Of a stretch of 64,000 bases of DNA, positions 55,103 to 64,000 are shown one piece after another (position 1 is the first letter of the stretch; each line of letters starts with the position of its first letter). The stretch is from Acidimicrobiaceae bacterium. Its GTDB lineage: Bacteria > Actinomycetota > Acidimicrobiia > Acidimicrobiales > Aldehydirespiratoraceae. A program made the position numbers and the translations under genes. The stretch spans positions 66,997-130,996 of the forward strand of contig JAPOUM010000026.1 of assembly GCA_026708645.1 (NCBI GenBank). The letters are read 5' to 3'. The notes beneath the pieces are model-generated. The model was given only the letters and a program-made list of their open reading frames with translations, had not been told where the DNA came from and did no database searches.

Positions 55103-56386
55103 TCAGCTCAAGGCGCCGACGATCAGTTCGGTGTTGGTGCGCAGGAAGCCGAGGTAGGTGTCAGCGCCGCTGCCCGGGGGTCCCAGGCTGCCTGTGTAGA
55201 GGGTCACCACTTCGATGTCGCCCACTCGGGCGGCCAGCGCCTCGGCGTCGTCACTGGTGTGCTGGGTCTCGGCGAAGATGGCTTGGATCCCTTCGTGCTC
55301 GATGAGCTCTGCAAGTTCCTCAAGCTGCGCCGGATTGGTTTGCGCCATAGATGACGGGCTCGGGATGACTGCGCCGATCACCTCCACTTCGTAACGGTCG
55401 GCGTAGTAGCCGAGAGCATCGTGGTTGGTCACCAGCTTGCGATTCTCAGCAGGCAACTGCGCGACGCTGGCTGCGATCTCGGCATCGACAGCCTCCAACT
55501 CGGCCTGGTAGATGTCCGCACAGGCTTGCAATTCGGCTGCGTCGATCCCGGCCTCGGTGTTCAGCACCCTCACTAGGTCAGGCAGTGCCTCGGCCACGCG
55601 ATGCGGATCGAACCATACATGGGGGTCACCGCCGCTGTGGTCGTGGCCATGGTGGTCGTGGCCTTCGTGGTCGTCGTGTTCGTCGTGGTCCTCTTCGTCT
55701 GAGTGTTCGTCGTGGTCGTGGCCTTCGTGGTCGTCGTGTTCGTCGTGGCTCTCTTCGTCTGAGTGTTCGTCGTGGTCGTGGCCTTCGTGGTCGTCGTGTT
55801 CGTCGTGGCTCTCTTCGTCTGAGTGTTCGTCGTGGTCGTGGCCTTCGTGGTCGTCGTGGCCGGATCCGAATGAGTAGGGGATCGTGTCCACTGCCTCTGC
55901 GACCTCGAAGACCGGAGTTCCCGCCTCAGCCACTGACTCGAGTGTGTCGAGGAGCCGCTCCTCCAAAGCGAGGCCGTTGGCCACAACGAGCGCGGCGTCC
56001 TCCATGCGTCCCCTGTCCTGCAAGGACGGCTCGTAGCCGTGGGGGTCTCCACCAACCGGGATGAGCGCCTCCACGTTGGCGAGCCCGCCGCAAGCCACAT
56101 TGGACACCACGTCAGCCCAGATGCCGGTGGTCGCAACGATGGTGGGCGCATCCTCATCGACTTGCATCGGTTCGTCGGCTTGCTCGCTGGAGGAGTCGTC
56201 AGAGCAGGCCGACGCTGCGAGAAATACAGCGGCTGCTACGGAGGCGGGCCTCAGCAGGCCTCGCCAACTCCCTCTGATGCCGGTTCGAGAATGTTCCGGC
56301 AGATTCGTCGATCGACGCACGGCTAGGCTCCTTCGGTGACGCTCAACATGCCGTGGCACTATAATGAGAGCGAGTCTTATTTCCAA
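55103..56386 (-). CDS. znuA: Metal (probably zinc) ABC transporter substrate-binding lipoprotein with an expanded His/Asp/Glu-rich loop
   Basis: Lipobox AAAVFLAASAC-SDD. Cluster A-I SBP blocks (IVATTGIWADVV..GGDPHGYEPS..DPHVWFDP..LVTNHDALGYY..IFAETQ). The loop is HDDHEGHDHDEHSDEESHDE repeated about 3 times (60-bp DNA period). The true start is probably downstream of ATG 56386 (GTG 56347 or 56320). Confidence 0.88.
   Translation of the reverse strand: MEIRLALIIVPRHVERHRRSLAVRRSTNLPEHSRTGIRGSWRGLLRPASVAAAVFLAASACSDDSSSEQADEPMQVDEDAPTIVATTGIWADVVSNVACGGLANVEALIPVGGDPHGYEPSLQDRGRMEDAALVVANGLALEERLLDTLESVAEAGTPVFEVAEAVDTIPYSFGSGHDDHEGHDHDEHSDEESHDEHDDHEGHDHDEHSDEESHDEHDDHEGHDHDEHSDEEDHDEHDDHEGHDHHGHDHSGGDPHVWFDPHRVAEALPDLVRVLNTEAGIDAAELQACADIYQAELEAVDAEIAASVAQLPAENRKLVTNHDALGYYADRYEVEVIGAVIPSPSSMAQTNPAQLEELAELIEHEGIQAIFAETQHTSDDAEALAARVGDIEVVTLYTGSLGPPGSGADTYLGFLRTNTELIVGALS
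56363..56381. promoter_or_regulatory. Candidate Zur operator: imperfect inverted repeat AATGAGA-N5-TCTTATT overlapping a TATAAT hexamer
   Basis: This is the only A+T-rich patch in the znuA/zur divergent region. Half-sites match 6/7. TATAAT lies at 56359-56364 on the plus strand, ~40 nt upstream of the zur start. It is not a close match to the TGAAAATNATTTTCA-type consensus. Confidence 0.3.
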
Positions 56387-56403: not shown

Positions 56404-56871
56404 ATGACCGGAGACCGGGTAAGAGATCGAGCGGACGTTGTCGGCGATCTGCATGAGGAAGTGGGTGTTTCCTTGGCGCGGTGCGACTATCGCTACACAG
56501 CGGGACGCCGGCGGATCGTTGACGCCCTGGCGGACGCAGGCAAGCCGATCACATTGCCCGACATATTGGCGGCAGCGCCGGAACTAGCTCCCAGTTCCGT
56601 CTACCGCAACTTGGATGTGCTGGAACGCTCAGGGGTCGTGCAGCGGATCGCCGCCGCCGGCGCTCACTCATTCTTCGAGTTCGCTGAGCCGCTGATCTCG
56701 CATCACCATCATCTGATCTGCATCGACTGCGGAATCATCGAGGACTTCCGTCTCGACGACGACATGGAGAGGCGAGTCGACAGCGGCCTGCTCGAAGCAG
56801 CAGGCAAGGCTGGATTCACCCCGCTGCGCCACAGCGTCGACCTGCACGGCTACTGCGCCGCCTGCGCCTAG
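56404..56871 (+). CDS. zur: Fur-family transcriptional regulator, probably Zur
   Basis: 155 aa. ..YRYTAGRRRIVDALADAGKPITLPDI..SSVYRNLDVLERSGVVQRI (wHTH), HHHHLICIDCG and HGYCAAC (two CxxC metal sites). Divergent from znuAB. Confidence 0.8.
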   Translation: MTGDRVRDRADVVGDLHEEVGVSLARCDYRYTAGRRRIVDALADAGKPITLPDILAAAPELAPSSVYRNLDVLERSGVVQRIAAAGAHSFFEFAEPLISHHHHLICIDCGIIEDFRLDDDMERRVDSGLLEAAGKAGFTPLRHSVDLHGYCAACA

Positions 56872-57018
56872 CAGCAGTCGTTGTAGTTGTTGTAGTCGGC
56901 CCCACCCCGCCTCAGCCGCTTCTCGACCGCCCGCGACCCCAACCTCACGCGAACCGGCACCCAGCCGACCGACCGCAGAAATAATAATTATTAGCTCGCC
57001 CGGTGCCTCGGAATTGCA

Positions 57019-57043
57019 GTAAGTAATAATATTTATTACTTAC
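57019..57043. promoter_or_regulatory. Perfect A+T-rich palindrome GTAAGTAATAA-TAT-TTATTACTTAC at the left border of the low-G+C island
   Basis: 11-bp arms with a 3-nt centre. It lies inside an A+T-rich stretch (..GAAATAATAATTATTAGC.. at ~56978) about 100 nt upstream of the first island ORF. Confidence 0.7.
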
Positions 57044-57141
57044 AGAATTTCTTGCATGTTCTCGTGCGGTTGCTGGAGGACGCTGGCATTCGTTTCGTCG
57101 GAGGCGATCACAGACGGCGGCTTTTCGTGAGTGCGTCGTGA

Positions 57142-57540
57142 GTGGGTAGGTTGTCGCCAGTGGGGGTATTCGATGCACTCCGTGCGTCGCTCGGCTACGA
57201 GTACTCGAGGGGATCGTGGTTCTGGGTGCCGGTGAGCGAAGCCCGAGCGGCCCGCGGCGTGAGGCCTTTCGGACAGGGCAAGACACGGCCCGTGGTCTTG
57301 GCCACACGATTAGGCCCGGACGCGGTCTTGTTCCCGCGCTCCACCAAGCCGTCGAGTTTTCGCCATGACGCCCACCGCCACGCACCCGATCCACCCTGTC
57401 GGATCGACAGGCCTGGCTGGGTCCCGCTGCACCTGCGAGCGGTCGTGGACCTGCAACTCCTCAACGAAGAGTCCTACTCGTGCGAAGAGCCCGAAGGCTC
57501 GCAGTTGTTCGGCGCCATGCTCGAGGCGCTGCGGCCATGA
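57142..57540 (+). CDS. Small protein with PemK/MazF-like sequence pattern (island operon gene 1)
   Basis: 132 aa, GTG start. ..RGSWFWVPVSE..GKTRPVVLATRLGPDAVLFPRSTKPS..GWVPLHLRAVVDLQLLNE.. resembles the MazF/PemK order (GDIWxV.., K/TRPxVVL, hhxP.T.., late V.hdqhr..d). The assignment is tentative. Confidence 0.4.
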   Translation: MGRLSPVGVFDALRASLGYEYSRGSWFWVPVSEARAARGVRPFGQGKTRPVVLATRLGPDAVLFPRSTKPSSFRHDAHRHAPDPPCRIDRPGWVPLHLRAVVDLQLLNEESYSCEEPEGSQLFGAMLEALRP

Positions 57541-58091
57541 CTCCACAGGATCGGCAAGTCAACTTCGCGGATCTGCGTCGGGAGCACGAAGCCGCGACCA
57601 TCGGTCCGCTGCTGTGGGCGCTGACCGTCGAGTTGGCCGGGATGGTCGGGCGCCGCTACAGGCCCGCGGAGTACAACGGGGGCGCGCCGTGGGACAAGGC
57701 ATCGATCGAAGAGCTCGCGCAGCAGACTGCGGTGGACCTGCTGATCGGGGAAGGCCAGATCGACTACATCTTCACGGTTGCTGACAGCACTGAGGATGTC
57801 AGGCGGTTGCTCACTCGCAACGTGAAGCGAGCTCTGTGGCGCCGCCGTTCTCCGACCGTCGTCGACAGACTGAAAGGGCGTGCTTGCGAGATGGCGTCGC
57901 AGCCGCCCTTGGCCATCGAGTATGTTGGGTCGCGCCGGTGGATCACCAGTTCAGGCGACCCCGGCGCTCCTCGCGAATTGAGCGATGCCGAGTTGCGGCG
58001 CGCCGCTGCTGCCGCGCGTCGGATTCCGAGACTGATCGAACGCGAAGGAGCTGAGCGGGCCTCGATGGTCTACTCGCCGGGCATGCTGTGA
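57537..58091 (+). CDS. Hypothetical protein with sigma-70 region-2-like segment (island operon gene 2)
   Basis: ATG 57537 overlaps the gene-1 stop (ATGA). ..ELAQQTAVDLLIGEGQIDYIF..EDVRRLLTRNVKRALWRRRS resembles the ECF sigma region 2.1-2.4 pattern (..Qe.f..l...f.....WL..ia.n...d..Rrr). Confidence 0.5.
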   Translation: MTPQDRQVNFADLRREHEAATIGPLLWALTVELAGMVGRRYRPAEYNGGAPWDKASIEELAQQTAVDLLIGEGQIDYIFTVADSTEDVRRLLTRNVKRALWRRRSPTVVDRLKGRACEMASQPPLAIEYVGSRRWITSSGDPGAPRELSDAELRRAAAAARRIPRLIEREGAERASMVYSPGML

Positions 58092-58103
58092 GAGCTGCTG
58101 CAT

Positions 58104-58529
58104 GTGGTGATTGGTGAGACTGACGGCATCTTCGACAGCGATCTGGAAAGGGTTTTCAAGATTCTGGTCGCATCGTGGCTTCCACCGTCCCTTGTATCTG
58201 ATGAAGGCAGCGACTCTGCTGAAAGCGTCGCAAGCGGAACAGCCGCCGAGGAAGGAATGGAGCGCTACGAGATGGAATCGGCAGTTCAAGATCTGGTGGT
58301 GTCAATGACTGCTGAGGATCTGGCGGTGTTCGTCAGCAAAGCGCAAGGAGTGTCCGACAGCGCGGTGGCCGAGCGGCTCGGACGCTCTAGGCGCTGGGTT
58401 GCGGAGCGCAAGCAGGCCGTCCTCGAACGCACCGACGAGATGTTCAGAGACCGCGTGCCCGCAGGCGCGCAGGATCTGGCCGCGACCCGACTGCTGGAAC
58501 TCGCCAGTGACGCACTGGGGGAGACGTAG
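58104..58529 (+). CDS. Hypothetical protein with sigma-70 region-4-like HTH (island operon gene 3)
   Basis: GTG 58104, in the same reading frame as gene 2 and separated from it only by TGA 58089-58091 plus four sense codons. ..MTAEDLAVFVSKAQGVSDSAVAERLGRSRRWVAERKQAVLER.. fits a region 4.2 / LuxR-like HTH. Confidence 0.5.
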   Translation: MVIGETDGIFDSDLERVFKILVASWLPPSLVSDEGSDSAESVASGTAAEEGMERYEMESAVQDLVVSMTAEDLAVFVSKAQGVSDSAVAERLGRSRRWVAERKQAVLERTDEMFRDRVPAGAQDLAATRLLELASDALGET

Positions 58530-58531
58530 CA

Positions 58532-59458
58532 ATGACTGCTTCAAGGGAACGAGACGGGAACTCGCGACACGGCGCGAGCACGAGTCCGGGCGCCGGTGAG
58601 ACCGCGCCGGTGAACGAAGCCGTGGCGACAGCCTGCGCGACCCGCACCGCTGCGGCTGCTGGCGCGTCCGTGGCTGCTGGCGCAGCGACCTCAGCGTCGC
58701 TTGAAGGCGCGGCTCGTCGTCGGCGGGTGGAGCGGGGCGATGTCCGCGTGGTCGAGCCGCTGGCGTGGCAGAGGGGCGCCAGGCGGATAGCGGTTGTGTG
58801 TCGTGTCGACCCTGACTGTGAAATAGCCGAAATGATGCTGGCCCATCCTTGGCCTGAACTCGCCACCGACACCGACGCTGTCGTTGCTAGCGAAGACTCT
58901 GGTCTGCCGTTCCCTCTGGTGGTCGAGTGCTATGTGCGAAACCCGGTGTGGTTGTGGCAAGTCTTTGAGCGTTTAGGCGGCTTTACCGAATCTCAGATGA
59001 ATGCTGTCGGTGAAGCAGTGATTGATGACAACCCGATGGCTGAAGGGGTTTACACAGGTCTGCCGCTCGCCGGACCTGCTGATGCCCGCTGGAGTTTCAA
59101 AGCTCAGGAGATCACTGAATGGAGAACTATCACTGAAGATTGCTTCACTGTGCTGCTTGACGGTGATCGTGTTTGGCAGTTCGACCGTGACCGACTGCAG
59201 CCGGATACTTACGGCGAGTCGTCGGAGGATGTTCTATCGCTGCAAAGCCGTGAGCGTCTTGCCGAGACGATCCACCAGATCGCAACACGTCCGATGTCTG
59301 TCGCAGTGGATGACATTGATACGGAGGCTCTTGACTTTGAGTGCTGGTCTGAGCACCTCGGCCGAGATGCTGGCATGGACGTATTCGCAGCCTTTCAACC
59401 GTTATTTGATAAAGCGTTATCGCAGTCTTATGAAACACTGCAGAAGGAAGCTGTCTGA
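58532..59458 (+). CDS. Hypothetical protein, no recognisable domain (island operon gene 4)
   Basis: 308 aa, ATG 2 nt after the gene-3 stop. Ala-rich, low-complexity N-terminal ~75 aa, then a globular region (..AHPWPELATDTDAVV..PFPLVVECYVRNPVWLWQVF..). Base composition becomes visibly A+T-richer from ~58.95 kb. Confidence 0.55.
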   Translation: MTASRERDGNSRHGASTSPGAGETAPVNEAVATACATRTAAAAGASVAAGAATSASLEGAARRRRVERGDVRVVEPLAWQRGARRIAVVCRVDPDCEIAEMMLAHPWPELATDTDAVVASEDSGLPFPLVVECYVRNPVWLWQVFERLGGFTESQMNAVGEAVIDDNPMAEGVYTGLPLAGPADARWSFKAQEITEWRTITEDCFTVLLDGDRVWQFDRDRLQPDTYGESSEDVLSLQSRERLAETIHQIATRPMSVAVDDIDTEALDFECWSEHLGRDAGMDVFAAFQPLFDKALSQSYETLQKEAV

Positions 59459-59461
59459 GCT

Positions 59462-61291
59462 ATGCCATCGTTCCCGCTACGATCTATCGAAGTCACAAAC
59501 TTCAAGTCGATTGCCCACGGTAAGGTTGATTTCAGGCCATTGACTGTGCTAGTCGGCCAGAACAGCGCAGGCAAGAGTTCGCTCCTGCAGACATTGAGAT
59601 TCTTGTCACAGACAGCAGCAACTAGCAAGTCCGGGATAGAAGTGCCGCTGAACGGCACCAAGTTACGATTGGGCACCTTCGACGATGTCCGCACATCTGG
59701 TGCCGAAGGTTCGATATCGGTGCGTGCTAATCTGTCCACTGCACCGCATCGCACTTCTGATAATGATGAGGTCGGGTCGGAAGTGCAATTGAAGATCGAA
59801 GCGGCACCACCCGAAGAGAACCCCGAAAGCGGCTACGCCCATCTCGCTGTAAATGACCTGGAAGTGTCAGACTCTGTAGCTCTCTGGTGCGCTGAGGTAT
59901 GGATTCAGGCTGTTTGGAGTCGAGTCAGAGAAACCGTGCTGGAGGCAGCCGGGGAGCAGTCTTGCGAATCTTTTGGTCATCCAGGTATAGGTATAGATGC
60001 CGACTGGGATTCGGAGCGGCAAACAGAATGTGAAGATACTGATTTTTATCACCCGGTTGACGATAGAGAGCCAGTCGAATCTTGGTTGCGCGGCTGGCTA
60101 TTAAAAAAATCTGGACTTGATCAATACCAGAACTCATCTGAGCCGCTGTCTGTCGATATGTCAGCTAGACAAGAATCACTTCTCTTGGCGAGTAGTGACG
60201 ATATTCGAGGCGCTTTTGAAACTGTCTATAATTTGGGTTCCGTTGATCCAAGCTATAGAGTCAAAATAATTCATGATCGAGTTCTGCGTTATTCACTCGA
60301 TGACATGGCTCGACTAGCCTTATCCATGATCGAACTTGGAGGCTTGTACTTTGAAGATAACCCATACCATGATAAAGATGACAGTGATTCTTGGTATGTA
60401 AATCCCGAGAGATTGCTCATGACTGACTTCACTAAAATTGCTCATCAACTTGTCTCAGCGATTGTGGATGACGAATGGACACGAGACCCGTCACTGCGAC
60501 AGTGGGCTGATAGTGCTGTTGCAGAAAGGCAGAGGCCCGCTGTTGCCAACATGCTCCGAGACCATGTCCGTTATCTGGGGCCGCTGAGACAGGAACCGCG
60601 CCCCTTCTTCGACATTGATGATGAGGATCGTCTGGACGTCGGTGCTGCCGGTCAGCACTTGGCGCGTGTGCTGCAGTGGCATGGAACCAGGACGGTCGAT
60701 GTGCCTGAACTAGGAAAGGTCGACTTGGTTGATGGCTTGCAGCGTTGGCTGCGTAAACTGGGCGTGATCGACGAGGTCGCTGTGGAGGCTCGAGGCCGCG
60801 CCGGGGTCAGTGTTGAGGTGCGCCCCCCCGACCTGGATCGCCGGGTTGACCTCACGTCGGTCGGTGTCGGCATCAGTCAAGTGCTGCCGGTTCTGGTGGT
60901 TTGCTTGCTGGCCGATCCGGGCGACCTCGTGCTGTTGGAGCAACCGGAACTGCATCTGCATCCGGCGCTTCAGATGCGCCTCGCCGACTTTCTGCTTGCT
61001 TGCGTAGAGAGCGGACGGCAGATCATCGTCGAGACACACAGCGAGAATCTCGTCAACCGGCTCAGGCGCCGCGTCGCCGAAGACGACACCAGCGACACCG
61101 CTGGACTCGTCCGCGTCGTGTTCGCTGAACGAAATGCCGAAGGACACACGACGTTCCGGCCGTCGGACATCAACCCGCTGGGCGGACTCAGCCAAGATTG
61201 GCCAGACGGATTCCTAGATCTCGGCGCCCGTGACGCCCAGAAACTCCTGCGAGCCGGCCTCGCCAAGCATCGCCGCCTCAAGTCTGCTTGA
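59462..61291 (+). CDS. ABC-type (AAA_15/AAA_21-like) ATPase with DUF3696-type C-terminus (island operon gene 5)
   Basis: 609 aa. IEVTNFKSI..LTVLVGQNSAGKSSLLQTL (Walker A), a long ~400-aa insert, YLGPLRQEPRPFF..VGAAGQH, GVGISQVLPVLV (signature-like), LVLLEQPELHLHP (Walker B/D-loop), IVETHSENL (H-loop), and the C-terminal ..DWPDGFLD typical of DUF3696. Confidence 0.85.
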   Translation: MPSFPLRSIEVTNFKSIAHGKVDFRPLTVLVGQNSAGKSSLLQTLRFLSQTAATSKSGIEVPLNGTKLRLGTFDDVRTSGAEGSISVRANLSTAPHRTSDNDEVGSEVQLKIEAAPPEENPESGYAHLAVNDLEVSDSVALWCAEVWIQAVWSRVRETVLEAAGEQSCESFGHPGIGIDADWDSERQTECEDTDFYHPVDDREPVESWLRGWLLKKSGLDQYQNSSEPLSVDMSARQESLLLASSDDIRGAFETVYNLGSVDPSYRVKIIHDRVLRYSLDDMARLALSMIELGGLYFEDNPYHDKDDSDSWYVNPERLLMTDFTKIAHQLVSAIVDDEWTRDPSLRQWADSAVAERQRPAVANMLRDHVRYLGPLRQEPRPFFDIDDEDRLDVGAAGQHLARVLQWHGTRTVDVPELGKVDLVDGLQRWLRKLGVIDEVAVEARGRAGVSVEVRPPDLDRRVDLTSVGVGISQVLPVLVVCLLADPGDLVLLEQPELHLHPALQMRLADFLLACVESGRQIIVETHSENLVNRLRRRVAEDDTSDTAGLVRVVFAERNAEGHTTFRPSDINPLGGLSQDWPDGFLDLGARDAQKLLRAGLAKHRRLKSA

Positions 61292-61384: not shown

Positions 61385-61843
61385 CTATTGTCCGGACAGG
61401 GCTGCTTGCACGGCTTCTTGGACTTTGTCGGCAGCTTCCTCGGGGTCTTCGTGCTCCCAGAAGCGCAGCACGGTCCACCCGGCTTGCTCCAGGTAGGCGG
61501 TGGTCTCTCGATCGCGCTCGGCATTGCGCGCGATCTTGGCTGCCCAGTATTCGGAGTTGGTCGCCGGTTGGGTGTGATGCTCGGGGCATCCATGCCAATA
61601 GCAGCCATCGACGAAAACGGCTATGCGGGTCTTGCGCAGCACTAGATCAGCGGTGCGAGCCAGTTCCGGCTGGGGTCTGACCGACACCCGGAATCTGATG
61701 CCGCGACGATGCACGGCAGAGCGCACCGCCATCTCGGGGCCGGTGTCGCGGCTCCGGTTCGCCTGCATGGATCTGCGAGTGCCCGGCGATGAAGCCCAAG
61801 ACTCTTTGCCTGAGCCTGTTCCCACCTCCCAGACCGTACTCAC
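61385..61843 (-). CDS. vsr: Very-short-patch repair endonuclease
   Basis: ..RRSMQANRSRDTGPEMAVRSAVHRRGIRFRV..ADLVLRKTRIAVFVDGCYWHGCPEH..PATNSEYWAAKIARNAERDRE..AGWTVLRFWEHE matches the Vsr blocks (TxPE, FVDGCFWHGC, N..yW..KI..N..RD, W.v...WE). Start uncertain (GTG 61843, GTG 61834 or ATG 61768). Confidence 0.88.
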   Translation of the reverse strand: MSTVWEVGTGSGKESWASSPGTRRSMQANRSRDTGPEMAVRSAVHRRGIRFRVSVRPQPELARTADLVLRKTRIAVFVDGCYWHGCPEHHTQPATNSEYWAAKIARNAERDRETTAYLEQAGWTVLRFWEHEDPEEAADKVQEAVQAALSGQ

Positions 61844-61975
61844 TGCCCCCTGCCGGCGCCGAAGCCGGGCGGCGAGGGGGACCGTCCCAGAGGCCCGACA
61901 AAGACTGCTGCACCGGCAGCGCGGTTGTGGCACCGGGTCGTGTCTAATGTCACACGACAGCGTTACGGTGGGGTG

Positions 61976-62631
61976 ATGTCAGTTCCGCTCAACCTTGACG
62001 GCTTGAAGGCTGCGGCCGTCGATTTTGCCGCGTCGCTTCGCGGCGCGCCGATCCGCGAGCTGTTCGGCAGGACAGATGGCAAGGCGCTGGGCACCTGGGT
62101 CGAGGCGAACTTCAAGGAGTTTCTTGCAGAGCGGCACGCGTATGAGTCTGGAAATGCAGCTAGCGGAATCGACTTCCCGGAACTGGAGGTTGATCTCAAG
62201 GCGACATTCATAAAGCAGCCTCAGTCATCGTGTCCGTTCAGAGATGCAGCGCAGAAATTTTCGGTTTGGGTTACGGCCTTCTGGTGCTCGTGTACGAGAA
62301 GACCGACATAAGCGAGACCGAGTCTGCGGTGATCGATGTTCGTCACGCCCTTTTTATCGATCGGTCAAGGACCGGCGACTACCAGACGACTAGGGGAATC
62401 CTTGAAATCCTAGACCGAGCCGGTAACTCCGACGATCTCGTTGCCTTTATGGAGGATCGCAATCTGCCGCTAGACGAAGTAGGCCGCACGGCCTTGGCTG
62501 ATCGAGTTCTCCGAGACCCTCCGACACAGGGCTACCTCACGATCAGCAACGCACTGCAGTGGAGGCTCCAGTATGGCCACGCAATCACGAACGCAGGAGT
62601 GGCCGAAGGTGTGCAAAACCTTGTCTCGTAA
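61976..62631 (+). pseudogene. PD-(D/E)XK type II restriction endonuclease, interrupted by a 1-nt frameshift at an A3T4 run
   Basis: ORF 61925..62311 (from ATG 61976: MSVPLNLDG..SGIDFPELEVDLKATFIKQPQSS..AAQK) continues in the -1 frame as ..IFGLGYGLLVLVYEKTD..TISNALQWRL (ORF 62230..62631). The frames meet at CAGAAATTTTC (62252-62262). GID..EVDLK fits D..(D/E)xK. Confidence 0.6.
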
Positions 62632-64000
62632 GGAGCTTGGCGACTTCCAGACGCCTCGGGAGCTTGCATTCGAGTGCGCTCAAGTTCTGGCAAAGATCCA
62701 GCGCGGCACTCGCCGGGTGCTGGAACCGACATGCGGTGAGGGGAGCTTCATGTTGGCCGCGGCATCGGTCTTCGGTCCCTCAATCGAAATGCTGGGCGTA
62801 GAGATACAACCCGCTCATGCCGCCGCGGCGCGTCGCCTGCTCAACTGCTCGGCTACCAGAGACGTTGACTGGCGAGTCGAGGAGGGCGATATGTTCCGAC
62901 ACGACTTGAGCACGCTCATGTGGGAGACTGAAGGACCACTGCTAGTCCTCGGAAATCCGCCATGGGTCACATTGTCTGATCTAGGTGCGATGGGCTCAAT
63001 CCATATCCCCGACCGCACGAATCTGCGTTCCGTGCGGGGGATCGATGCACTTACGGGTGAATCGAACTTTGATGTCGCCGAGTACATCTGGATGCGGCTA
63101 CTCACGGAACTGCGTCAGGAGGAGCCGACAGTCGCTCTCCTCTGCAAGACTTCTGTGGCTCGTCGGGTCCTTGCGTTGGCAGCTCATCTGAATTTGCATG
63201 TGGCTGATTCGTTCTTATGGCGAATCGACGCGAAGAAGGCGTTCGGCGTAGCAGTTGATGCTTGCTTTTTCGCTATTCAGCTAGATGGAGCTAGTCACAA
63301 CTATCGGTGCAGGGTTTTCGAGTCATTGGATGCAAGCTCTCCAGTGAGCACCATGGGTTTGGTCGATGGTGCGCTTGTTGCTGATGTGGATGCCCACTCG
63401 GCGTCTCGACATTACGACGGATCGTCGCCGGTTGAGTGGCGACAAGGCGTCAAACATGACTTGGCGTCTATCATGGAACTTCGCACCGACGATGGCGGTA
63501 AACTCCAAAACGCTCTCGGCGAGGTCGTAGAGATCGAAGACGACTGGGTATATCCACTCCTCAAAGGCTCTGATGTGAACGCAGGTCGAGCCCCGCAACG
63601 ATACGTGATCGTTACTCAGCGATCTCTGGCAGACGAAACTAGGAGTCTCCGACACTCAGCCCCCAAGCTTTGGAATTATCTGCAGATCCATGCGGAGCAG
63701 TTCGCTGCTCGCAAATCGTCGATCTATCGAAACCGAGCAGCCTTCTCAATGTTCGGAATCGGGCCTTACACATTCGCGTCATGGAAAGTAGTTGTCTCGG
63801 GCTTCCATAAAGCCCCTAGGTTCCGGTTGTTAGGTCTAAGTGAGAGCAAGCCTGTTCTACTAGACGACACATCGTACTTCTTGCCGTGCGAATCAGCGGC
63901 CGAGGCTGCCATCCTTCTGAGTGCGCTGAATAGTGGTGCCGCTACTCTCCTTCTCAGGTCTTTGCTGTTCGCTGACGCTAAGCGACCGGTGACGAAAAAG
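62573..64000 (+). CDS. Gamma-class amino (probably N6-adenine) DNA methyltransferase; 3' end runs off the right edge
   Basis: Own translation in frame 2 from ATG 62573, with no stop to the window end: MATQSRTQEWPKVCKTLSRKELGDFQTPRELAFECAQVL..RVLEPTCGEGSFMLAAA (motif I) ..PLLVLGNPPWVTLSDLG (motif IV, NPPW) ..ESNFDVAEYIWMRLL..ALLCKTSVARRVL, followed by a long target-recognition region. Not in the supplied ORF track. Confidence 0.8.
   Translation, partial: MATQSRTQEWPKVCKTLSRKELGDFQTPRELAFECAQVLAKIQRGTRRVLEPTCGEGSFMLAAASVFGPSIEMLGVEIQPAHAAAARRLLNCSATRDVDWRVEEGDMFRHDLSTLMWETEGPLLVLGNPPWVTLSDLGAMGSIHIPDRTNLRSVRGIDALTGESNFDVAEYIWMRLLTELRQEEPTVALLCKTSVARRVLALAAHLNLHVADSFLWRIDAKKAFGVAVDACFFAIQLDGASHNYRCRVFESLDASSPVSTMGLVDGALVADVDAHSASRHYDGSSPVEWRQGVKHDLASIMELRTDDGGKLQNALGEVVEIEDDWVYPLLKGSDVNAGRAPQRYVIVTQRSLADETRSLRHSAPKLWNYLQIHAEQFAARKSSIYRNRAAFSMFGIGPYTFASWKVVVSGFHKAPRFRLLGLSESKPVLLDDTSYFLPCESAAEAAILLSALNSGAATLLLRSLLFADAKRPVTKK

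Follow-up and report, generated by a model that had tools for sequence, protein, structure and literature searches.

Defence systems built around ABC-type ATPases are a major theme in bacterial immunity, and to our knowledge a recognisable nuclease accompanies the ATPase in every one described (Menshen, HEC-03, PARIS, Septu and Gabija). Menshen was reportedly described by Millman et al. in 2022. It consists of NsnA (ParB-DUF262 plus ParBDB), the ATPase NsnB and NsnC (inPIN plus effector); its partner proteins are extremely polymorphic, and the DUF3696 tail of NsnB is predicted to act as a clamp on an effector of RNase type (PMC12065111). HEC-03, composed of an ABC ATPase and a PIN/VapC-like RNase, has been validated experimentally as a defence system (bioRxiv 10.1101/2024.01.29.577857). 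The present analysis concerns a cassette of tightly packed genes ending in an ATPase gene of this group, located in a stretch of 64,000 nucleotides from an Acidimicrobiaceae bacterium (contig JAPOUM010000026.1, positions 66,997 to 130,996), referred to here as the window. The cassette is a conserved module of four genes, of the same kind as the ABC-ATPase conflict systems and apparently not described before.

In the window, the cassette is made up of five open reading frames (ORFs) on the plus strand: g1 (57142–57540), encoding a small protein of ~125–132 aa with its likely true start at the GTG at 57163, g2 (57537–58091), g3 (58104–58529), g4 (58532–59458), encoding a 308-aa protein of unrecognised fold, and g5 (59462–61291), encoding the ABC-type ATPase (AAA_15/AAA_21). 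The junctions are −4 nt (ATGA) for g1/g2, +12 nt and in frame for g2/g3, +2 nt for g3/g4 and +3 nt for g4/g5. These coordinates and all four junctions agree with an earlier reading made from the letters of the sequence (hereafter the sequence-only reading), which had proposed a five-gene defence system. The number of genes was not borne out, as g2 and g3 form one gene in relatives, and on the alignments the functional unit is therefore four genes: g1, a sigma-like gene, g4 and the ATPase gene. Searches of the window proteins against Pfam, PADLOC and NCBIfam left g1, g2 and g4 without a match and gave g3 only a sub-threshold match to HTH_23. Scans in and around the cassette yielded neither an Rfam family nor a tRNA, and no terminator or promoter beyond chance expectation.

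A genome scan starting from the g4 family identified ten loci, mostly in metagenome-assembled genomes (MAGs) of Acidimicrobiia, and tblastn recovered the window ORFs, all five in unchanged order, at seven loci (L001–L007). The order is fixed as g1 (~130 aa), sigma-like (~331 aa), g4 (~300 aa) and ATPase (609–731 aa), and the full gene order was found in at least 14 independent loci, counting L002 (OZ244822.1, 2,291,485–2,308,444, with an intact cassette) and L013 once. Exact look-ups revealed the same arrangement around two distant g1 members, P0120 (41% identical) and P0188 (34%), where the small protein is accompanied by proteins of ~323–332 aa and ~279–339 aa, both without a Pfam match, and by an AAA_15/AAA_21 ATPase of 615–685 aa. 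Each of the four proteins was homologous to its counterpart by BLASTP (29–35% for the sigma-like protein, 33% for g4 and 48% for the C-terminal half of the ATPase), and g1 identity across loci falls to 28–38%. Three further short contigs with a distant g1 run on into the sigma-like gene, one of them (L019) also into g4. The four genes are co-inherited in a fixed order and translationally coupled; the co-occurrence of genes 1 to 4 with the ATPase, which the sequence-only reading had proposed as a check, is a conserved neighbourhood in these 14 or more loci.

All genes of the cassette are under purifying selection. Pairwise ratios of nonsynonymous to synonymous substitution rates (dN/dS) were 0.12–0.31 for g1, 0.11–0.31 for the two sigma-like parts, 0.24–0.33 for g4 and 0.05–0.13 for the conserved ends of the ATPase, with the strongest constraint on its C-terminal half (0.05–0.06), these values being qualitative with dS near saturation. 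The cassette is also often lost, with deletion remnants at four loci (L008, L009, L010 and L022). At L008 a deletion has fused g4 to the C-terminus of the ATPase, L010 is a remnant and at L022 the ATPase is cut to 207 aa. At L009 (OY763490.2, 5882–8549) a zur homologue stands beside a mere fragment of g4, which corresponds to the insertion site seen in the window, nearly all of the cassette having been lost there.

Pfam assigned the ATPase g5 to AAA_15 (7e-26, 92 bits against a cut-off of 32) and AAA_21 (1.9e-25, 91 bits against a cut-off of 27), and its C-terminus gave a weak match to DUF3696 (0.045) in a tail where the motif DWPDGFLD is invariant among orthologues. The window protein has a Walker A motif (GQNSAGKSS), a GxG signature (SVGVGISQ), a Walker B motif (LLEQPE) and an H-loop (ETHSE), which across the orthologues read GxNSxGKSS, SVGVGxSQ, LLEQPELHLHP and ETHSE, followed by the tail NPLGGLSxDWPDGFLD. 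The motifs GQNSAGKSS, LLEQPELHLHP, ETHSE and DWPDGFLD named in the sequence-only reading were accordingly recovered both in g5 and in the alignment of its orthologues, and its assignment of the protein to the defence-type AAA_15/AAA_21 ATPases with a DUF3696 tail is supported, with NsnB of Menshen as the best PADLOC match. The PADLOC matches were NsnB (3.4e-67), HEC-03B (4.7e-49) and PDC-M55A (2.7e-41), with AriA (2e-27), GajA (5e-15) and PtuA (1e-12) far weaker; distant orthologues matched NsnB at ~1e-66 and left this ranking unchanged. As judged by these profiles, g5 is a member of the NsnB (Menshen)/HEC-03/PDC-M55 group of ABC ATPases. The protein also matches phrog_21420 (E 7e-65), a 654-position profile without an assigned function, and phage-borne relatives of the ATPase thus exist. 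Near 60,950, and in all orthologues, the Walker B motif carries EQ in place of the DE that is usual in ABC ATPases. Replacement of E by Q traps other ABC ATPases as the ATP-bound dimer, and the EQ motif hints that this ATPase may be switch-like and not motor-like.

Between its conserved ends the ATPase has a hypervariable low-G+C insert (59760–60600, plus strand, roughly aa 100–380) with large indels between orthologues, which tblastn leaves uncovered and which is shortest in the window version. This insert is a candidate specificity or trigger-sensing region. The G+C content along the locus falls from ~0.65–0.71 to 0.55 near 58.8 kb and to 0.44 at 60.0–60.4 kb, and is back at 0.63 by 60.6 kb. 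The dip (0.44–0.55 in the window) coincides with the insert and is also present in six of ten related loci (L001–L005 and L014), and is thus a family-wide property of the insert, because it recurs over the same insert in related loci. The G+C switches reported in the sequence-only reading are therefore real as measured, but the mosaic origin drawn from them does not follow, since six of the ten related loci have the same dip.

A comparison with Menshen shows both likenesses and differences. NsnB is the closest PADLOC match of g5, the AAA_15/AAA_21 ABC fold is common to both, and the two share a signature that reads GxG instead of SGG, a Walker B motif that departs from the canonical form and a conserved DUF3696-like tail; they may also follow a common logic, in which a DNA-binding sensor is combined with an ABC ATPase and a small effector of RNase type. 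However, the cassette has neither a ParB-DUF262/ParBDB NsnA nor an inPIN-effector NsnC, its ATPase is last rather than in the middle, it has four genes rather than three, and its DNA-binding partner is sigma-like. The g5 family also has a ~250–350-aa hypervariable insert for which the 345-position NsnB profile has no counterpart. Neither DUF262 nor any other ParB-type Pfam domain was found at E up to 10 in g1–g4 or in the members of their families that were searched (15, 24 and 20), PADLOC NsnA gave no match in the window cassette or the distant orthologues, and PADLOC NsnC gave none in the window. Of the components of Menshen, only an NsnB-type ATPase with a DUF3696 tail is present in the cassette.

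HEC-03 and the PADLOC candidate PDC-M55 provide the second and third best matches of the ATPase (5e-49 and 3e-41). In HEC-03 the ATPase is partnered by a toxin-type ribonuclease, which would fit g1 as an RNase-type effector, whereas the cassette, compared with HEC-03 and PDC-M55, is larger by two conserved genes (sigma-like and g4). No PIN Pfam domain or second HEC-03 PADLOC model was detected in g1, g2/g3 or g4. PARIS (AriA/AriB), Septu (PtuA/PtuB) and Gabija (GajA/GajB) have ATPases of the same broad AAA_15/AAA_21 class, which serve as scaffolds for an effector and release or activate it, but g5 matches these far less well than it matches NsnB, and no Toprim/DUF4435, HNH or UvrD-like/GajB helicase partner was found in the cassette with Pfam or PADLOC. 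The sequence-only reading had stated that a nuclease partner was missing. This holds for DUF262, PIN, Toprim and HNH domains, but was premature as a general claim, as g1 could be an RNase-type effector. Its view that the combination is unlike any named system was upheld for the libraries searched, with no PADLOC, Pfam or NCBIfam model naming g1, g2/g3 or g4, and literature searches returned no description of this gene combination. The CapK/CapS anti-sigma-kinase/STAS regulators of immune operons (PMC13373217) were also considered and rejected, no HATPase or STAS domains being present in the cassette.

The g2 and g3 ORFs correspond to the first 184 codons and the last 141 codons of the sigma-like gene, and positions 57537–58529 translate as one reading frame with a single internal stop, a premature TGA at codon 185 (58089–58091, plus strand) identified by DNA alignment with relatives. 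The codon at this site is CGA, AAA, AGA or CAA in L001, L002, L004 and L005, and the TGA derives from CGA via a C-to-T change, splitting one ancestral ORF. The region is a single ORF of 321–335 aa in L001, L002, L004, L005, L006 and L007, and the 55 homologues of the fused ORF are nearly all ~331 aa in length. What the sequence-only reading had described as a sigma factor split over two genes is instead, given the single ORF of relatives, a lineage-specific nonsense mutation in one gene. Identical split products of 184 and 141 aa are recorded from several Acidimicrobiaceae MAGs, and the split allele is hence real rather than a read error. The close relative P0270 has Arg at the position of codon 185, yet its sigma-like gene is split elsewhere. 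In an AlphaFold2 model the stop falls within a confidently predicted helix (residues 181–195), and g3 would be expressed solely through re-initiation at the GTG at 58104. The window copy is probably impaired or decaying, because of this premature stop and of a frameshift in a neighbouring restriction gene.

The AlphaFold2 model of a full-length sigma-like orthologue (predicted local distance difference test score, pLDDT, of 74) begins with a helical domain and a hairpin, continues with middle helices and an acidic, disordered linker, and ends in a helical bundle at the C-terminus. The g2 part covers the predicted sigma2-like helical domain, the beta-hairpin and the start of the middle helices, and the g3 part carries the acidic linker and a tetrahelical helix-turn-helix (HTH) of the sigma4/LuxR type. 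Nearly all of the top matches of this model in a Foldseek search of the PDB were sigma factors (SigB, SigA, SigH, sigma32, sigma28, sigmaE and AlgU, with ~300 aligned columns at E 0.1–1), and the sigma4 portion alone matched with a Foldseek probability of 0.92–0.98 (0.98 for 3hug; root-mean-square deviation of 2.7 Å for 2h27). At the sequence level, HTH_23 matches 22 of 24 sigma-like orthologues, and an extended profile matched StyR (2.8e-4) and the sigma4 domain of SigF (0.007) in the PDB, as well as FixJ and NarL. These profile matches give significant support to a predicted sigma4/LuxR-type DNA-binding HTH at the end of the protein.

Matches to sigma-factor models were weaker. The sigma70-ECF (extracytoplasmic function) model TIGR02937 matched three divergent orthologues at 1.6e-5 to 9e-4 (18.9–24.6 bits against a cut-off of 42.9), with one alignment spanning region 2 to region 4 and the L016 orthologue covering profile positions 47–164. 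TIGR02985 gave a sub-threshold match, Pfam Sigma70_ECF matched one of 24 members (E 0.013), and neither Sigma70_r2 nor Sigma70_r4 reached its curated Pfam threshold in the window proteins or the 24 family members. The resemblance to sigma regions 2 and 4 noted in the sequence-only reading therefore stands at sub-threshold sequence level and at the level of the predicted fold, but the curated cut-offs are not reached, and the protein is best termed sigma-like rather than a sigma factor, with RNA polymerase binding putative. Like ECF-type (group 4) sigma-70 factors, it is predicted to have a sigma2-like helical domain joined by a linker to an HTH of the sigma4 type. It differs from them in an insert of ~100–130 aa between the two domains, and in that its gene lies within an ATPase operon and has no recognisable anti-sigma gene adjoining it.

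The small protein encoded by g1 belongs to an unnamed family, represented by 198 clusters at 50% identity in a profile search. C86 and C114 are invariant in this family and W26, R66, H75, H78, G92 and E116 are near-invariant, which suggests a Cys2His2 metal site. Only three PDB matches were obtained with the family profile, all of them MazF (E 0.33) and colinear over 70 residues. When g1 was aligned by hhalign with Bacillus subtilis MazF, the match had E 0.0024 and a probability of 12%, and R25 and T48 of MazF, its catalytic Arg and Thr, lay opposite R49 and S67 of g1. The likeness to MazF/PemK/Kid proteins (CcdB/MazF fold) extends over ~70 colinear residues, including an RP-hydrophobic strand and an (S/T) strand with the catalytic Arg/Thr. 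In contrast to these toxins, g1 carries an additional conserved segment (W-F) at its N-terminus, two invariant Cys and two near-invariant His residues, and no MazE-like antitoxin adjoins it; the neighbouring gene encodes the 331-aa sigma-like protein, and no antitoxin-family Pfam match was found in the genes adjoining g1. The description of g1 as MazF-like in the sequence-only reading is thus matched by the identity of the PDB matches, but these are sub-significant, no PemK Pfam match accompanies them and the Cys and His pairs are foreign to MazF. The MazF-like similarity is a weak, remote lead and not proof. In P0092, a close relative of the window g1, a short tandem duplication (STKPSTKPS versus STKPS) is present in the loop right after a conserved PRS motif.

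A search with g4 gave a family of 36 proteins, which have a variable Ala/Ser/Thr-rich N-terminal tail, a conserved beta-rich core (~aa 68–195) and a helical C-terminal part. The residues G69, R85, T112, D115, W140, Q143, D184, R186, F189, K190 and E193 of the core are invariant. Neither g4 nor its family matched Pfam, PADLOC, NCBIfam, PHROG or PDB, and Foldseek searches of the AlphaFold2 model (pLDDT 59) against PDB and BFVD returned nothing credible. The sequence libraries and fold searches thus bear out the earlier remark that g4 belongs to no recognisable family. The Foldseek matches, to tyrosine kinases (E ~1, template modelling score of 0.13) and one PemK-like protein (E 4.3), were at chance level and no conclusion was drawn from them, and a MazF barrel in the N-terminal core of g4 received no support from hhalign of g1 against g4. 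No ZAS or other anti-sigma signature was detected in g4, which may be an adaptor or a second effector.

The locus is probably a new ABC-ATPase conflict module. The more specific reading has about an even chance of being correct: the locus would be a copy of a conserved four-gene module of conflict or defence type that has been scattered horizontally, and its ATPase would hold and release a MazF-like effector. We infer the defence role from the family resemblance of the ATPase and the patchy, decaying distribution of the cassette. By analogy with Menshen, HEC-03, PARIS and Septu, an oligomer of the ATPase would keep the effector inactive via the conserved DUF3696 tail. Infection would be sensed by the variable insert of the ATPase and/or by the sigma-like protein when attached to DNA or RNA polymerase, and ATP binding or turnover would then free or activate the effector. 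The effector in this scheme would be g1, as a MazF-like barrel of the endoribonuclease type with an added Cys2His2 site, whose activity could lead to translation arrest and an aborted infection, with g4 as a possible adaptor or second effector.

A number of observations weigh against this scheme. The similarity of g1 to MazF is below significance by both measures (E 0.33; hhalign probability of 12%), neither Pfam PemK nor any other Pfam model matched any of 145 g1 family members, and the Arg of g1 that aligns with the catalytic Arg of MazF is His in some family members. The choice of effector is a guess, given that the fold of g4 is unrecognised. With EQ in place of DE in the Walker B motif, ATP hydrolysis may be weak or atypical. 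Several loci lie amid purely housekeeping genes without defence neighbours, and a scan of IMG/VR viral contigs with the sigma-like alignment found nothing. A sigma-like core component is also without precedent among the defence systems checked, and a mechanism built on analogy may therefore miss the real logic.

The sigma-like protein is central to two other explanations, each of which is considered unlikely. In one, it would be a working immune component rather than a regulator, and defence would proceed by sigma-factor mimicry. It could act as a decoy or guard through which the ATPase is alerted when a phage takes over RNA polymerase or sigma factors, or as an effector that the ATPase frees and that sequesters the RNA polymerase core and halts transcription; the Cys2His2 MazF-like g1 and g4 would then be new effector or adaptor folds. 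In the other, of similarly low probability, the cassette would be a sigma/anti-sigma stress-response module with a true alternative sigma factor, g4 (perhaps with g1) as anti-sigma and the ATPase as a signal-dependent regulator freeing the sigma factor. The sigma70/ECF-like fold and the sub-threshold sigma70-ECF matches agree with a stress-response role, as does the presence of some loci amid housekeeping genes. A coupled gene just 3′ of a sigma gene is classically an anti-sigma factor. However, g4 lacks any such signature, Sigma70_r2 and Sigma70_r4 of Pfam stay below threshold, and no conserved promoter-like element was found upstream of the cassette across the compared loci. Its occurrence at varied chromosomal sites, patchy and often decayed, and an ATPase family otherwise known from defence systems also speak against a stress-response module.

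A toxin-antitoxin-like addiction module of mobile DNA, which would stabilise an island with g1 as toxin, the HTH protein (with or without g4) as antitoxin or autorepressor and the ATPase as an accessory, is slightly less probable again. A toxin-first arrangement is seen in HigBA and MqsRA, and the ATGA overlap of g1 with the sigma-like gene would place the toxin first here; the weak MazF-like similarity of g1, the HTH in the second protein, and transposase and toxin-antitoxin genes near some loci are also in keeping with such a module. Proteins of 331 aa and 300 aa and an ATPase of 600–700 aa, however, far exceed the known type II antitoxin sets, and the ATPase is the most constrained part (dN/dS of 0.05) and is present in every intact locus. 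The strain of the window moreover tolerates a stop in the putative antitoxin gene while g1 is intact, which a simple toxin-antitoxin pair would hardly explain unless the N-terminal fragment suffices. That the cassette is a highly diverged Menshen, with NsnA and NsnC drifted past recognition, is very improbable. The best PADLOC match to NsnB (3e-67), the DUF3696-like tail, the NsnB-like GxG signature and the extreme polymorphism of Menshen partners (PMC12065111) would be accounted for, but there is no ParB-DUF262 protein, with Pfam DUF262 unmatched in g1, g2/g3, g4 and their families. The ATPase is also last with no conserved gene 3′ of it, the ~250–350-aa ATPase insert has no equivalent in the 345-position NsnB profile, and the gene number is four versus three.

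The interest of the cassette as a conflict module is that it keeps a Menshen-type ATPase and swaps its partners for three families that are nameless in Pfam, NCBIfam and PADLOC. Should it prove to serve defence, it would contribute effector and sensor folds that are new and might tie immunity to the transcription machinery. The intact orthologues are ready test constructs; the window copy itself, probably decaying, is of more modest interest.

The flanks of the cassette vary among genomes, which places it at different insertion sites. The window has Zur/ZnuA genes upstream and Vsr, a frameshifted type II endonuclease and a methyltransferase downstream, whereas other loci adjoin Abi_C with an ISL3 fragment, a PIN toxin-antitoxin pair with an AAA_21-RloB pair, or an SNF2 helicase with AAA genes; transposase genes adjoin the cassette in some loci. 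The gene 3′ of the ATPase likewise differs per locus, namely Vsr on the opposite strand in the window and AlkZ-like, SNF2, transporter and glycosyltransferase genes elsewhere. The window genes downstream form a restriction-modification remnant (61385–64000) that adjoins the cassette and is not part of it. It comprises Vsr (61385–61933, minus strand), the frameshifted type II restriction endonuclease (61925–62311 and 62230–62631, matching positions 3–94 and 92–214 of the PADLOC REase_II profile) and a methyltransferase ORF with EPTCGEGSF and GNPPW motifs, which runs from ~62573 and is open at the window end. Vsr normally partners C5-cytosine methylases, and its position beside an NPPW-type methyltransferase is therefore an odd pairing.

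Upstream of g1 lies a Fur/Zur-family gene (56404–56871), and two AT-rich inverted repeats, AGAAATAATAATTATTAG and GTAAGTAATAATATTTATTACTTAC, are located between it and g1 (56975–57055). Other loci lack these palindromes in front of the cassette, and the repeats are probably Zur/Fur operator boxes of a local zinc regulon, which now front the inserted cassette. The ZnuA-like solute-binding protein gene (55103–56386, minus strand) encodes a His/Asp/Glu-rich loop with a threefold tandem repeat, in which HDDHEGHDHDEHSDEESHDE occurs three times.

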